A stretch of DNA of 64,000 nt from a virus (lineage: Duplodnaviria; Caudoviricetes): the IMG/VR virus record IMGVR_UViG_3300029913_000001. The stretch is one strand, 5' to 3'. The notes beneath the pieces are model-generated. The model searched no databases, was not told where the DNA came from, and saw nothing but the letters and a program-made list of their open reading frames with translations. How positions within the stretch are numbered: the first letter of the stretch is position 1; each line of letters begins with the position of its first letter. The translations under genes and the position numbers were made by a program. Below, one piece after another: positions 42,902 through 64,000 of this stretch.

Positions 42902-44557
42902 CTAAGAGGAAAGAGCATCAATTAAATTATCTGGTATCGTTATACCAAATGATAAATCTACAAATTCTTCTTTTTTTGCTTGTAGTTCTTTTCTTTCTGC
43001 ATACCATTTAGCTAATAATCCAGGAATAATCGCTTCTTGATCATAACTAAAAATTGTTCCGTTACCACTTAGCATCCATTTCTGATCGCTATAAAAAATG
43101 ATATCATAAATCTGAGAAGCTGAAAGAGTATCACTTGTACCTGTTGATTCCCAATCAATAATAATATCTACGCCAGGTTTTCGATCAATAACCGCCTGAT
43201 ATTCTAGAGTTGAAAAAACACCCTCCCACGCATGAGAATAAGTCATGCCTTTTTGTGACATTTTTTCAGCAACAAATGCCTCTGTAAGTGTGGGGCGCAA
43301 CTGTCCAATAATAGTTTCTATTCCCATGTTTAATGCACGAATTGTACTAGGATATAGTGAATTAATATCAATTACACCTAGCCATTCGTGAATTCCTACT
43401 TTTGGATCGGCTACATATGCGCCTACTGCGGCTGGCTCGTCATCGTCTTTCTGAGAACTATATTTTGGTTTATTTGGAACAATCATACCCAAATCATGGG
43501 CTCTATTAATAATAGCCTGGTCTGTTTTGGCTACGGTTCCCATACAAGTAGGTAAAAGAGTGGTTGTATCATGGGCGACAACATTAATAAGTTCAATAAA
43601 CTTTAATTTATTGTCTAACTGCTCCAATAGATTAACATCTTGCCTATTATATCTAATAAATAATTCAAAATCATTATTATATAAATCATCTAATGAACCT
43701 TTATATTCAGTCTTACTACTTCCTAATTCATATTCAGCAATAGAATTTAATGAATATGAATGACGTTCTTCATATGTGAATTTTCGGTATAAATCCATCA
43801 TATCGATATGAATCTTGCCAACTAATTCATACGTCTTAAATTCTTTACCATATTTTTCAACTACTTTAGCCTTTGGTTTTTCATTCCAGGATAATTCACA
43901 TAATCTACGAGTATCATCTTTACTCATCACTCGTTGGATTCGATTAACAAGATATGGAATATCGAATCCTTCGCTATTCCATCCTGATATAACATCGCTG
44001 TCTTCTAATATATCGAGAGCGGCATTAAGCATATCAACTTCATTATCGAACACATATGTGTTCTCGAATTTATTTGCTATACTCTGCCCCTCGTCGAAAG
44101 TAATAGTTTTAGGTGGAATTGCTACAGTAATTAGTTTATTACACCAAACTAGATCAATTGTAATTGCGGTTATTTTATTAAAGGGGTCCTCGATGGGCGA
44201 GTATCCCTTATCCTTATCGAAATCAACTTCGATATCGATAAGAGCAACATGAAGATCAGGAGCGGGCTTACCTTTATAATTTTCCGATAAACATTTAAAA
44301 GTAAGATTTAAATCTGACTCCCAAATCTTTTTATCTGTACCTTTAAGGATCGCTAGTTCTTTGTAAAATTCACTAGAAGTTTTAGGGGTAATTTTTGTTA
44401 GAGGCGTATTATAAATTGATTTATAAGACCCATTCGGATCATCGATATAGAAACTATAATCGACAGGATAATTATTGAACACTCTCTTGCCATTGACTCG
44501 TTCGATAACTTCAATACGATCATTCTTACGATCTATTCTAGCTGTAATATATGACAT
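42902..44557 (-). CDS. gp43: Family B DNA polymerase, N-terminal subunit (3'-5' exonuclease and motif A)
   Basis: DIEVD, GWNSEGFDIPY, YNRQDV, DINSLYPS and KWYAERK motifs. Confidence 0.95.
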   Translation of the reverse strand: MSYITARIDRKNDRIEVIERVNGKRVFNNYPVDYSFYIDDPNGSYKSIYNTPLTKITPKTSSEFYKELAILKGTDKKIWESDLNLTFKCLSENYKGKPAPDLHVALIDIEVDFDKDKGYSPIEDPFNKITAITIDLVWCNKLITVAIPPKTITFDEGQSIANKFENTYVFDNEVDMLNAALDILEDSDVISGWNSEGFDIPYLVNRIQRVMSKDDTRRLCELSWNEKPKAKVVEKYGKEFKTYELVGKIHIDMMDLYRKFTYEERHSYSLNSIAEYELGSSKTEYKGSLDDLYNNDFELFIRYNRQDVNLLEQLDNKLKFIELINVVAHDTTTLLPTCMGTVAKTDQAIINRAHDLGMIVPNKPKYSSQKDDDEPAAVGAYVADPKVGIHEWLGVIDINSLYPSTIRALNMGIETIIGQLRPTLTEAFVAEKMSQKGMTYSHAWEGVFSTLEYQAVIDRKPGVDIIIDWESTGTSDTLSASQIYDIIFYSDQKWMLSGNGTIFSYDQEAIIPGLLAKWYAERKELQAKKEEFVDLSFGITIPDNLIDALSS

Positions 44558-44563
44558 ATAACT

Positions 44564-44592
44564 ATTATATAACCGCTATCTATAGTTGTCAA
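44564..44592 (-). promoter_or_regulatory. sigma70 consensus promoter for the polymerase
   Basis: TTGACA-17 nt-TATAAT. Confidence 0.9.
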
Positions 44593-60341: not shown

Positions 60342-60857
60342 TTATTTACCGATTATTAAATTTTTCGCAGCTAATTTTTTATTGGAAAATATTTTCTTTT
60401 GTCTATTACGTGATTTGTAATAAGCGGCGTCTTTTAAAATTCGTTGTCGAAAAATCCATTCGTTGTCTTTTAAAAGAATAGCAATTGAAATCGTATTTGG
60501 ATTTAACTGAAATAATAGATCAGTGTCATTAAAAAAATCAATTATGTCATCTCGTAAAATTCCTATACGAAAATTTTCGGTTTTGCTATAAGAAATTATT
60601 CCCTTTTCTTTTAAACTATAATATTGTTCTATAATTGACATAAAAATATAATTGGGAATATCTTGCCAATCGCAATACAGTTTAATTTCATTAATTGTAT
60701 CAATCCAAAAATTTTTATCTATTTCATTAATTGAATTGTCGAAGTCAATTATCATATTCCAAAAATTCATTGATATATCAAAAAATATTAAAAATAATTG
60801 TTTTTGCAATTCATTTAATTTAATAATTTCATCTTGATAATATGATACATATTTCAT
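60342..60857 (-). CDS. Hypothetical protein
   Basis: ATG at 60857 after AAGGA; the upstream extension in the track runs through the cruciform. Confidence 0.5.
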   Translation of the reverse strand: MKYVSYYQDEIIKLNELQKQLFLIFFDISMNFWNMIIDFDNSINEIDKNFWIDTINEIKLYCDWQDIPNYIFMSIIEQYYSLKEKGIISYSKTENFRIGILRDDIIDFFNDTDLLFQLNPNTISIAILLKDNEWIFRQRILKDAAYYKSRNRQKKIFSNKKLAAKNLIIGK

Positions 60858-60906
60858 AAATATATTTCCTTGTTTTGCTTTTCCGAGTGGTGGATGACAA
60901 CACCAA

Positions 60907-61010
60907 GCGAAAGCGATATGCGAAGCCAGTGAACGACAGTGAAACATCTCATCAAATATTATTAAAATTTTTCACTGTCGTTCACTGGCTTCGCTTACTG
61001 GCGCTTTCGC
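60907..61010. repeat. Large GC-rich inverted repeat with AT-rich loop (origin candidate)
   Basis: Perfect 25-bp arms at 60920-60944 and 60970-60994, outer 9-bp arms GCGAAAGCG/CGCTTTCGC, 25-nt AT-rich loop. Confidence 0.9.
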
Positions 61011-61087
61011 TATGTGCTCTCCACAAGTCCGAAAAGCGAAAATTTTAAATATTTTTGATGAATTAAAAATAAAATTATGGTTATTTT

Positions 61088-61536
61088 AAAGACAAAGACG
61101 CTTGGGGCGCCTCCCGTCTCTTTGGAACAACTTCCAAACTAAACTCCAATCCTTCCTATCCCGCTATATCATTAAGATCCGGCTCTTCATTTTGGGCTTC
61201 CGGGGCTTCATAGGAATTTCAGCGGTTATGCTGTACTGAAATAAGACCGTGCGGTCTATGATTGATCTGAAAAACACAACGCAATTATTTCAAATGAGTT
61301 TAGCAATTTGAAATAACTATATCAGGATTAGGAGCATTACGCTCTCGCCTTTACCTGTCTGTCTTTGTCACTTTTCTCAAGCCATGATAGCTATATTGAT
61401 GGGGGGACCCTCCAGGTAGTACTCTACCAACGACATTGGACACTAGGAGTTGCTGGGTGTTTAAGGCCAATAACCTTTGATCTAAATTGTAGGTATTGCT
61501 CCATATTTGCTACTCCATAAGTATTTTCCATGATTA
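61088..61536 (-). ncRNA. Candidate large structured non-coding RNA (about 450 nt)
   Basis: Own sigma70 promoter; no long ORF; several hairpins plus a long-range helix (61361-61369 with 61091-61099). Confidence 0.5.
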
Positions 61537-61542
61537 ATATAC

Positions 61543-61571
61543 AATATAACATTGATACGTTAACTTGTCAA
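61543..61571 (-). promoter_or_regulatory. sigma70-type promoter pointing into the non-coding region
   Basis: TTGACA-17 nt-TATATT. Confidence 0.8.
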
Positions 61572-61584
61572 GACATTTTTTATT

Positions 61585-62886
61585 TTATTTGAAAAAATAA
61601 TTTGCTTCTTCTATCTGTTCAACTGTAGCATTGGGAAAAAATAAATTTCTCATATTTTGAGCCATAGCCTTAGTTGGTAGATATACAATATTGTTATTAT
61701 ATGCTCCGGTTCTTAAGGAACTACGTAAAAGACCTTGATATGAGTGAGATAGCGTATGATGCATTAAAATTTCGTCAGCATCGAATCCGAGATCTACCAT
61801 TTTTTTCTGGTACGCGGGTGGCCACCTATAAGCACCAGATTCTCCGTAATTATGTGTACCAACATAGGTGTTTAATCCCTTAACTTCAAACGGCATAAAA
61901 ATAGGATTTTTAATATGGGTAAATTTATTACCTTTATTATTCTGTAACAAAATTTCGTTATCACCAATTGAATTTCCAACTAATAGATCGAATAATTCGA
62001 AATTGGTAAGAGTTGGTTCTATAAGATTTTTTGAGTTGTAGTAATTTTTACTCCATAGACTAATTTTTTCGGTCATCCATTTGATAGTAATAGGTTGATC
62101 GTGCTTATCAAATCTTTTAGGAATTACAAACTCTTCAATTGCAATGCCTTTTAACTTAAAATAGGCTATGATTTTACTACGTTGAATTTCTGCGCCCATT
62201 AAATAAATGTTTTCAAAACCTTCAAATATGTTGGTATTTAATTCAGCCCACATTTCGGCTTCGTAATTACCAAATTTAAAAGCTGTCAATGATGCAGTAT
62301 CCGCATATATTTTCATATTGGGATTCAATATCAATTGAATAAATTTTTGGAATGGCGGGTAAATAAAATCGTCGCGAAAGCAAAGAGTTTTTAAAAATCG
62401 CTGATCTTCTTTTGAGAGACGTTTTCGCTTAATAGACGTGTACCCACCGGCATTTATTTTGCAGGTACTAATTTTTTCAATATCTGCCATTAGGTCATTA
62501 CCGAATTCATAACTTGATGCATCGTCCGAATCAAAAGTAATGAAGTCAGTTGGTTCTATTTCTTCATCAACAAAAACAGTCCAATTTTTTTTATTCGGAA
62601 AATTCAAAATATTCTTAAATGCCGCATGTGTAATAATAAGGACTTCGCATCGTAATGGTATTGTTAGATATGCATTGATTGCCTTAGTAACACCCATACT
62701 GTCATTTTCCATATAATTGATAATTTTATATGGGGTATTTCCCAATCGTTTAGCAATTTCGTATTGCAAATCGGTTGAGGGGGTTACGAAAAGCACTCGT
62801 TTTTTGTTATTAACGAGTTCTTTAGATAAGTTAACAGCAAAATATGTTTTGCCGGCCCCGCACAACGAATTAATATATCTTATCAT
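61585..62886 (-). CDS. SF2 helicase-like, origin-binding-type protein
   Basis: SLCGAGKT Walker A, VTPS, IITH, VFVDE and YQGLLRSSLR motifs. Confidence 0.7.
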   Translation of the reverse strand: MIRYINSLCGAGKTYFAVNLSKELVNNKKRVLFVTPSTDLQYEIAKRLGNTPYKIINYMENDSMGVTKAINAYLTIPLRCEVLIITHAAFKNILNFPNKKNWTVFVDEEIEPTDFITFDSDDASSYEFGNDLMADIEKISTCKINAGGYTSIKRKRLSKEDQRFLKTLCFRDDFIYPPFQKFIQLILNPNMKIYADTASLTAFKFGNYEAEMWAELNTNIFEGFENIYLMGAEIQRSKIIAYFKLKGIAIEEFVIPKRFDKHDQPITIKWMTEKISLWSKNYYNSKNLIEPTLTNFELFDLLVGNSIGDNEILLQNNKGNKFTHIKNPIFMPFEVKGLNTYVGTHNYGESGAYRWPPAYQKKMVDLGFDADEILMHHTLSHSYQGLLRSSLRTGAYNNNIVYLPTKAMAQNMRNLFFPNATVEQIEEANYFFK

Positions 62887-62892
62887 CGTTTG

Positions 62893-62921
62893 ATTATAAT
62901 TGATTTTATGCCGAATGTCAA
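62893..62921 (-). promoter_or_regulatory. sigma70 consensus promoter for the helicase gene
   Basis: TTGACA-17 nt-TATAAT. Confidence 0.9.
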
Positions 62922-63481
62922 GCTATTAATTCCTTGATAAGTGCATTGAATTTTTCTTCCGCCAAGAACATACATTTTCCAGTAATTAGTATTTCATTAC
63001 CTGATGTAGTTGCCTTTAACAAATTATCCTGCCTAAATGAATATAACGAAGTAAACTCGTTGGGATCCATGTCTATAATTTTAGGTGCGTATTTTGAATA
63101 TTTGCCCTGATCATAATTCGTATATAAATCTTGCATCGTTTCTGACCATGTGAACTCGAAGTTATTGAATGGGAAGGTTATGAAAATTTTTCCATATCTA
63201 TTTGCCACAGATCTTTTATTTGTGCAGAAAATACTATTCGATCGTAGAGCCTTAAATCCTGCTGCTGATAATTTTTCATCAAATATTTTTTGTTGTTTAA
63301 TAGAAAATGACATTGGGTGCCTATCGGCAACCTTAGAAATAATAAACATATTTTCTAATCGGTGTGATCCGTGATAAAGAAATTCACCCGAAGATTTGTA
63401 GAAATCAACAATTTGAGAGCAAGATTTGCTGATAAATTTTTTAATATTATTGAGGTCTGGAGTAATTTCAAATTCTCTCAT
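62918..63481 (-). CDS. ALRSNSIFC-family ART-like protein, copy 7
   Basis: LYHGS, ALRSNSIFCT, YGKIFITFP and NEILITG motifs; TAATG coupling to the tail fibre gene. Confidence 0.72.
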   Translation of the reverse strand: MREFEITPDLNNIKKFISKSCSQIVDFYKSSGEFLYHGSHRLENMFIISKVADRHPMSFSIKQQKIFDEKLSAAGFKALRSNSIFCTNKRSVANRYGKIFITFPFNNFEFTWSETMQDLYTNYDQGKYSKYAPKIIDMDPNEFTSLYSFRQDNLLKATTSGNEILITGKCMFLAEEKFNALIKELIA

Positions 63482-64000
63482 TAATATCCTATTGCTATCC
63501 AGAACGCAGTTTCCCCACTACCACCGCAAATTATATTAAAATGATCGGAATCTGTTGGCGCTGCCGCCATTGGTTGGGGTACTCCTAGTGTTACACGCGG
63601 CCCGTTATCGGTAGCAACCATTCCAAAACAAGCATGGGTAAATGGGGTAGTAAAGGGAAAATTTTGTGTAGTATTATCCACAAGTGACGGAGTCGTACCC
63701 CATTGCAAGATTAGGCCACCCGGAAAATATTGATATCCATTGCCGCTAAGAGCATGAGTTAAAAATGAATTAAGATTGTAGTTACCCCATGCTGCTAATG
63801 CCGAGCCTGCATTTATAAGCGGAGATCCTACAGAAGGTGGCGCTGCCGTAGGTAATGATATTTGGCCCGCACCTCCTTGATTAATTACCGTAGTTCCTTG
63901 AATGTGTAAATCACTTTGCGCAGTAACTAGTGCGTCTAGAGTTGAAACACCATCTACTGAAAGTTGATTTTGTACCGTAAGAGTGCCATTAACAGTGGTG
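63481..64000 (-). CDS. Tail fibre protein, C-terminal part (gp53-like tip domain), runs off the window
   Basis: Frame open to the window end; NGYQYFPGGLILQWG...FPFTTPFTHAC motif. Confidence 0.8.
   Translation of the reverse strand, partial: TTVNGTLTVQNQLSVDGVSTLDALVTAQSDLHIQGTTVINQGGAGQISLPTAAPPSVGSPLINAGSALAAWGNYNLNSFLTHALSGNGYQYFPGGLILQWGTTPSLVDNTTQNFPFTTPFTHACFGMVATDNGPRVTLGVPQPMAAAPTDSDHFNIICGGSGETAFWIAIGY

Follow-up and report, generated by a model that had tools for sequence, protein, structure and literature searches.

A conserved, structured RNA candidate encoded beside long palindromes in a clade of uncultured giant T4-like phages

A stretch free of long open reading frames (ORFs) at positions 61571–61088, read on the minus strand, of a 64,000-nucleotide (nt) piece of DNA from the Caudoviricetes virus record IMGVR_UViG_3300029913_000001 (the whole piece being the window analysed here) is best explained as a stand-alone gene whose product is a ~450-nt structured non-coding RNA. 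We assign this reading a probability of roughly 0.55, and hold with high confidence that a real, conserved and structured RNA is encoded. As judged from the aligned sequences, its core fold is kept by compensatory substitution in five lineages. The element is the founding member of an RNA family without a match in Rfam 15, and it is rare, so far being confined to one clade of uncultured giant phages. An earlier note on this DNA had proposed a large phage non-coding RNA and a comparison of syntenic regions for covariation; that comparison revealed compensatory changes across the five lineages, which together with a conserved promoter and terminator and the lack of a coding signal bears the proposal out. 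Throughout, W denotes the window sequence and L-numbers (L003, L004, L008, L012, L127 and others) denote loci from relatives.

Metagenomic relatives of the helicase-like protein encoded upstream of the element (53–62% identity) led to contigs in which the corresponding gap could be compared. Each of these contigs was found to contain a gene-free gap of 0.7–1.3 kb between the helicase-like gene and the gene for a SegE-type GIY-YIG endonuclease (SegE). Comparison of the gaps by blastn aligned W to L004 (83% over 65 nt), L004 to L008 (79% over 361 nt) and W to L012 (72% over 174 nt). Using nhmmer and a covariance model, five distinct versions were resolved: W, L012, the L004-type, L008/L009 and a partial copy in L127, which is cut by the contig end and displays the 5' helices through H5. 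The four lineages other than W are uncultured phages from peat, bog and freshwater. By blastn, nhmmer and the covariance model alike, the element was found solely downstream of the helicase-like gene.

The five sequences were aligned over 33 base pairs by fitting to the covariance model R1 (alignment A10). It was found that 95.1% of cells are paired, with double-sided changes in 14 of the 33 pairs and a covariation score of 0.394. Control alignments with the pairing partners slid by 1–3 columns gave 32–50% paired cells, 1–3 double-sided pairs and scores of 0.04–0.10, while none of 500 column shuffles reached the observed values. When the two strands of a helix are taken from different lineages (5' from one, 3' from another), 61% of the pairs are standard, as opposed to 100% within a lineage. 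G-U pairs account for ~21 of the paired cells in A10, and as these would be A-C mismatches on the opposite strand, they place the RNA on the strand of the promoter.

The four full-length versions display one architecture with nearly identical spacing (Table 1). These complete copies have at least ten helices in common, which hold corresponding positions but differ in sequence and include an H-type pseudoknot formed by H8 and H10. Structure-blind MAFFT alignments analysed with RNAalifold recovered H3, H5, H6, H8 and H9 with compensatory changes, and the same approach supports H1' (five pairs, three with double-sided changes, none broken) and H10 (five pairs, four with double-sided changes, none broken). 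H1' replaces a first model of H1 (AAGG/CCTT), being better supported. H2 displays three double changes between L004 and L008, while H4 is weakly supported, with one compensatory change. The double-sided changes in H5 affect two pairs, one going from A-U to G-C and the other from G-C to C-G. All eight pairs of H8 are formed throughout (100% paired, three with double-sided changes); its 3' strand sits within the H10 loop, with H9, which is supported in the model-fitted alignment as well as by RNAalifold, located in between. The H7 position is occupied in all four full copies by a hairpin of 4–12 bp of unrelated sequence that MAFFT cannot align, although L004 and L008 have H7 in common, with one double change. 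Two double changes separate W from L012 in H11, which reads TTCAAA/TTTGAA in L004 and GGTAAA/TTTACC in L008, and the interior of the domain it closes differs between two RNA types.

Each of the hairpins that the earlier note had placed by eye at 61415–61428, 61332–61344, 61285–61316, 61245–61256 and 61216–61242 is present at that position, corresponding to H3, the inner hairpin of H6, H7, H9 and H10, respectively. A 9-bp long-range pairing of 61361–61369 with 61091–61099 had also been put forward. The complementarity is exact, but it is strong only in W and L012 and displays no covariation. The energy of pairing between the J5/6 joiner and the 3' tail is −13.8 kcal/mol in W and −13.6 kcal/mol in L012, and in W the terminator stem could instead be extended locally, in competition with this pairing. 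We consider the long-range interaction possible.

Table 1. Features of the predicted RNA gene and the adjacent DNA in the window
Feature	Coordinates	Strand	Remarks
Early sigma-70-type promoter	61543–61571	−	−35 TTGACA 61571–61566; 17-nt spacer; TG-extended −10 TATATT 61548–61543
5' leader	61490–61536	−	Three YATGG motifs, starting at 61532, 61519 and 61505
H1'/H2 composite 5' hairpin	61435–61471	−	H1' 61471–61467 with 61439–61435, around H2 61460–61457 with 61443–61440
H3 hairpin, 5–6 bp, AGNA tetraloop	61415–61428	−	6 pairs, 4 with double-sided changes; 96.7% of cells paired in 5 sequences
H4 short stem	61400–61414	−	UGG/CCA here, AGG/CCU elsewhere; conserved GGGUCC-type loop
H5 hairpin	61380–61392	−	Loop UAUCAUG, the best conserved of all its loops; 5 pairs, formed in 100% of cells (5 sequences)
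J5/6 conserved single-stranded joiner, 22 nt	61358–61379	−	UUGAG-AAAGUGACA...; holds the 61361–61369 arm of the long-range pairing
H6 closing stem, 4–5 bp	61323–61357	−	Inner hairpin 61344–61332; 5 pairs, 3 with double-sided changes
H7 hairpin, 12 bp in W	61284–61317	−	11 perfect bp at 61285–61316
Pseudoknot domain	61223–61283	−	H8 61283–61275 with 61230–61223; H9 61257–61244; H10 61241–61236 with 61222–61217
H11, closing the lineage-variable 3' domain	61153–61216	−	61216–61210 with 61159–61153
3' end	61088–61138	−	Hairpin 61138–61132 with 61127–61121; GC-rich terminator hairpin 61111–61097; U tract 61096–61088
Nested imperfect palindrome, ~200 bp	60858–61056	.	Largest inverted repeat of the window; outside the transcript model

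The promoter, which had been spotted previously as TTGACA-17-TATATT, matches the sigma-70 consensus at 11 of 12 positions. Nine sites in the window reach at least 11 of 12 matches, and all nine have a 17-nt spacer and lie on the minus (coding) strand, which argues that the promoter at 61571 is no chance match and that these are real early promoters. The nine near-perfect promoters are located, on the minus strand, at 62921, 61571, 44907, 44592, 40402, 36664, 34209, 22016 and 8918, and offer a ready map of the early transcription units of this phage. TTGACA-17-TAnnnT promoters with the TG extension are also located upstream of the L012 and L127 copies, while only weaker candidates precede those of L004 and L008. 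In W the transcript would start near 61536–61534, and a metatranscriptome contig ending at 61536 provides a weak hint to that effect. Repeats related to the leader (YATGG...GTAAAC) occur upstream of the RNA core in L004, L008 and L127, and downstream of the palindromes in L012. We considered the YAUGG repeats as CsrA sites, tetraloop-receptor halves or RegA-type/bar-type mini-ORF decoys; these proposals were dropped on comparing the sequences, the features being inconsistent across lineages.

At the opposite end, the last elements of each copy are a short GC-rich hairpin and a U-rich run behind it; the stem varies in sequence by lineage. The terminator hairpin has a predicted energy of −15.7 kcal/mol in W (z −3.5), −9.7 kcal/mol in L004 (z −3.0) and −8.3 kcal/mol in L012, and is weak in L008. 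RNA-library contigs match 61113–61263 with one difference, and 61386–61536 and 61179–61382 with none. They are shallow Logan contigs assembled from two runs of peat metatranscriptomes, one in each of two studies. This places the sequence in RNA libraries, which in itself is no proof of transcription. The stretch 61680–64000 is covered by none of these contigs, a gap to which we attach no weight.

Several observations weigh against a stand-alone RNA gene. The fold of the single sequence (471 nt) has a minimum free energy of −114.2 kcal/mol compared to −109.3 kcal/mol for dinucleotide shuffles (z −0.93), and as this is no better than chance, significance can come only from the comparison of homologues. 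Alignment A10 was fitted to the structure of the model and hence favours it, although structure-blind alignments give the same helices. The number of distinct sequences known is five, one of them partial, so that formal covariation statistics such as R-scape have low power. In L004 and L008 the long-range pairing is marginal or shifted in register. The RNA-library contigs have little depth and do not resolve transcript ends or levels; they cover downstream genes too and could represent DNA carry-over. Finally, the neighbourhood of palindromes and direct repeats is constant, so the RNA may be tied to the DNA element beside it.

It could be argued that no functional RNA is made, and that the region is decayed coding sequence, spacer with chance hairpins, or a source of small peptides. 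The insignificant single-sequence fold is consistent with this, as are several mini-ORFs of 2–4 codons within the repeats and a 35-codon ORF that begins 11 nt past the −10 element, given that this phage appears to use leaderless early genes. For both the helicase-like gene and the ORF ending at 42902, the ATG lies exactly 6 nt past a consensus −10 element (62886–62921 and 44557–44592, respectively), suggesting that these are probably translated from leaderless mRNAs. Set against this, the conservation with compensatory changes is far above that of the controls. Mismatches between the RNA homologues are spread over the codon phases as 34/31/35 and 45/55/40, with no three-base periodicity; the homologues share no ORF, and L012 lacks the 5' ORF region entirely. 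All six frames of 61571–61088 are interrupted by a mixture of TAA, TAG and TGA, in agreement with the earlier description of a region with no long ORF and a GC content above that of its flanks (0.39–0.445 across 61000–61499 vs 0.20–0.26). Stop recoding was rejected, since all three kinds of stop occur in every frame and no single recoding opens one. A pseudogene of the 477-aa VapE-like ORF found in a sister lineage (see below) was likewise rejected, as tblastn finds no remnant of it in the region. We thus regard the lack of a functional RNA as highly improbable.

The RNA gene is oriented in the same direction as the genes that follow it, which in W are, beyond the palindrome, ORF171, SegE, a gene for a DnaJ-like protein and one for a ClpA-like ATPase. 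The transcript could therefore be a cis-acting leader, i.e. a 5' untranslated region of these four genes, with the 3' hairpin and U tract acting as a regulated attenuator akin to a riboswitch or thermosensor. No other strong sigma-70-type promoter is present from 61543 to the ClpA-like gene, RNA-library contigs cover the downstream genes as well, and for the U tract both local pairing and pairing to the distant J5/6 are available, which would allow two alternative structures. However, 200–800 nt of palindromes and repeats separate the RNA from the next gene, and that gene is not the same throughout, W having ORF171 at this place, L008 a 263-aa ORF, and both L004 and L012 SegE. In addition, a T4-late-promoter-like box (TATAAATA or CATAAATA) is located just upstream of the SegE start at L004:7385–7403, L012:5868–5886 and L003:7562–7579. 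Both the variable next gene and the late-type boxes render a cis-acting leader less likely, and a length of ~400 nt with a pseudoknot is far above the size of known attenuator leaders. We therefore consider this explanation very unlikely. ORF171 (60342–60857, 171 aa, between the palindrome and SegE) is not present in any relative, has no homologue outside this phage and belongs to no Pfam or PHROG family.

The earlier note had been unable to match the element to a known RNA family, and dedicated searches concur. The whole window gave no match to the 4227 covariance models of Rfam 15 at gathering thresholds. At permissive thresholds, the 1-kb region (E up to 10) yielded only miRNA-like matches, which fall on the palindrome, and the homologues L012, L004 and L008 (E up to 5) gave no match in the RNA. 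ARAGORN detected neither tRNA nor transfer-messenger RNA (tmRNA) in the window. Rfam models can miss divergent members, and a divergent group I intron, tmRNA or RNase P RNA would fit with a pseudoknot and many helices, and with the nearby homing endonuclease gene SegE. The failure of the permissive searches in W and in three homologues argues against such a divergent member, as do the absence of a tRNA-like end, of an interrupted gene and of P4-P6 and P8; we deem it most improbable.

Individual classes were considered in turn. tmRNA was ruled out, since there is no tRNA-like end and the 3' end consists of the terminator hairpin and U tract. A group I intron interrupting a gene is at odds with the helicase-like ORF being full length and colinear with six relatives, and with the element having its own promoter. 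The order of strands (H8a, H9, H10a, H8b, H10b), without P4-P6 and P8 elements, does not correspond to a group I intron core; one small hairpin lies inside the H8/H10 pseudoknot and none between H8b and H10b, and the Rfam intron model gives no match. A type III toxin-antitoxin RNA (ToxI-like) was rejected, as a 36-nt tandem array is found in the L004-type only; moreover, the RNA is conserved in lineages that lack ORF171. A retron RNA was also rejected, with no reverse-transcriptase domain found among the scanned or Pfam-annotated neighbouring genes of the window or its relatives.

The distribution of the RNA was assessed in larger collections. The region has no blastn match among 50,697 records of cultured phages. 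Exact-motif scans followed by an nhmmer filter returned only the L004-type, besides chance matches, from the IMG/VR viral contigs and from a metagenome contig collection, while motif scans with the same filter and helicase-based scans of GTDB (one genome per species) found no RNA copy. Helicase-based scans of viral contigs and a search of protein representatives added no further RNA copy. The covariance model detected no second copy elsewhere in the window, nor any copy in Agrobacterium phage Atu_ph07 or Morganella phage Rgz1. In Atu_ph07, a cultured phage of 490 kb, the helicase-like homologue is followed by a 1-kb 'gap' (L177 7281–8269) that contains at least two unannotated membrane-protein-like ORFs and a palindrome, and no homologue of the RNA.

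Two types of the RNA can be distinguished, W/L012 and L004/L008, with the 5' two-thirds in common and a different 3' domain. Between L004 and L008 the DNA identity of the RNA is 76%, compared to 65–68% for genes, and between W and L012 it is 64% compared to 57–66%. Within a type, conservation of the predicted RNA is thus at least about equal to that of neighbouring genes, and in L004/L008 it clearly exceeds it. In its helicase-like gene W is nearest to L004 (67%), yet the W and L004 RNAs are only 49% identical. RNA types hence cut across the helicase tree, indicating that the RNA gene moves between phages as a cassette.

Within 30–60 nt of the RNA gene, long palindromes follow in all lineages, their sequences being unrelated between lineages; in W the palindrome begins ~30 nt past the U tract. 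Unrelated long palindromes occupy the equivalent place in L003, L004, L008 and L012. Direct repeats with units of 22–36 nt and a shared TATGG core flank the RNA, as in L004:6368–6483 (36 nt × 3.2) and L012:5288–5348 (22 nt × 2.8), and their copy number varies between strains, the L005/L006 strain being short of L004 by exactly one 36-nt unit. The L127 promoter has one such repeat between its −35 and −10 elements. The arms of the palindrome in W carry GCGAAGC and GCGAAAGC. Judged by eye, GCTTCGC/GCGAAGC recurs in the palindromic regions of L003, L004, L008 and L012; across the window, GCGAAGC shows no enrichment, with 4 occurrences vs 4.8 expected.

L003-type phages have no RNA copy within 11 kb by nhmmer or covariance model. 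In its place they carry a gene for a 477-aa VapE-like/DUF5906 protein, a superfamily 3 (SF3) helicase (L003:5444–6877; also in L001, L002, L129, L130 and L133); a ~190-bp palindrome and four direct repeats of AT-rich sequence come after it. The nearby palindromes and repeats, taken with this replacement, make a role at a replication origin possible; a replication-primer transcript had been the alternative named in the earlier note. The RNA might then act as initiator, pre-primer or regulator at an origin composed of direct repeats, AT-rich spacer and palindromes, its fold forming or positioning an RNA-DNA hybrid or recruiting replication proteins, in a manner resembling ColE1 RNA II rather than T4 oriF or oriG. 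The constant palindrome, the flanking repeats (including the one inside the L127 promoter), the exchange with a VapE-like helicase accompanied by its own repeats, and an early promoter directed at the palindrome are all consistent with this proposal.

T4 itself offers a comparison. T4 R-loop origins use MotA-dependent middle promoters, whereas here an early sigma-70 promoter is found and the RNA fold is under strong selection. As in this T4-related phage, a promoter-derived transcript lies beside an AT-rich or repeat-rich element at the T4 origins oriF, oriG and oriE; T4 has transcript-primed origins, and the direct repeats seen here recall the iterons of oriE (PMC3016281). At an oriF/oriG-type origin an A+T-rich unwinding element comes directly after the promoter; here the AT-rich spacer and palindrome lie ~450 nt downstream of the promoter and past the terminator. 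The R-loops at oriF and oriG do not require a specific RNA sequence or fold (PMC3016281), which speaks against an origin role. Furthermore, a terminator-like hairpin and U tract separate the body of the RNA from the palindrome. No strand switch or inflection of GC skew is seen at the locus within the window. The L012 repeats lie on the far side of the palindromes, indicating that the repeat position relative to the RNA is not fixed, and the helicase-like neighbour has no assigned function. A ColE1-type antisense RNA I was rejected, as 61088–61571 contains no plus-strand promoter-like site of at least 9/12 matches from which a copy-control RNA could arise. On balance we consider an origin-linked RNA rather unlikely.

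The RNA shows some similarity to ColE1 RNA II. In both, a promoter precedes origin-like DNA by ~0.45–0.55 kb and directs a highly structured untranslated RNA at it, and the 3' part is G-rich in the W and L012 types. The differences are that here a terminator precedes the palindrome, that an RNA I-like antisense promoter is lacking, and that the origin role of the neighbouring DNA is only inferred. A specific version, in which the RNA is a fold-dependent origin initiator and a cassette of promoter, repeats and structured RNA is swapped, at the palindrome site, with one of VapE-like SF3 helicase and its own repeats, appears doubtful to us. If true, a T4-related phage would for the first time be seen to have an origin RNA that depends on its structure. 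The fixed place beside palindromes and repeats, together with the exchange for a helicase gene in a sister phage, provides a testable hypothesis on how replication starts in giant T4-like phages.

Returning to the stand-alone RNA gene, host RNA polymerase would make the RNA at the start of infection, and the RNA would be released at its own terminator. The folded RNA would then act in trans, most likely binding a phage or host protein, for which it would be a scaffold or a decoy. Such a protein might contact the H5 loop UAUCAUG, which is invariant, the J5/6 joiner, or the segments UUGCG and AUACAG. Whether the RNA is indeed an independent trans-acting molecule with a job other than replication priming is, in our estimation, evenly poised.

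It is rare for a large RNA to combine many conserved helices with a pseudoknot, and such RNAs, once understood in function, have usually proved to be ribozymes or the cores of protein machines. The phage-borne examples GOLLD and ROOL are still unexplained. The RNA described here resembles these in being a large, multi-helix, pseudoknotted phage RNA with its own promoter and terminator and without a known partner, recognised only via covariation. In contrast, it matches neither Rfam model, is smaller (~450 nt), is known only from a single clade (five lineages) of uncultured T4-like giant phages, and is tied to a fixed genomic place beside palindromes. A functional analogy can be drawn with the phi29 pRNA, which is also phage-encoded, early and structured, and works within a protein machine; the two are unlike in sequence and structure, come from different phage groups, and no link to packaging is apparent for the RNA described here. 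The compact size and the clear promoter and terminator are useful traits, and the host-type early promoter means that the RNA could be transcribed in vitro or in E. coli without culturing the phage, for probing, pull-downs and cryo-electron microscopy. A screen that used IMG/VR put forward 10,006 structured RNA candidates from viruses and phages (PMC10690425). As IMG/VR contains L004-type contigs, the motif may already be among the unnamed candidates of that screen; the text of the paper is silent on any motif in jumbo phages, at an origin or next to a helicase gene (PMC10690425).

The window stems from an AT-rich uncultured giant phage, the genes of which are found on a contig of 292,778 bp. 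The gene upstream of the RNA encodes a 433-aa helicase-like protein with a ResIII P-loop. An assignment as UvsW was rejected, given that the protein has no PDB relative and is placed in a PHROG of unknown function, and that the related proteins of cultured T4-like phages (~22% identity) bear the annotation 'hypothetical'. In L008, the helicase-like gene and the RNA are separated by an inserted gene (L008:6375–7499) whose 374-aa product combines repeated treble-clef zinc fingers (DUF4379) with a DUF2726-like C-terminus; it is probably a mobile nuclease gene.

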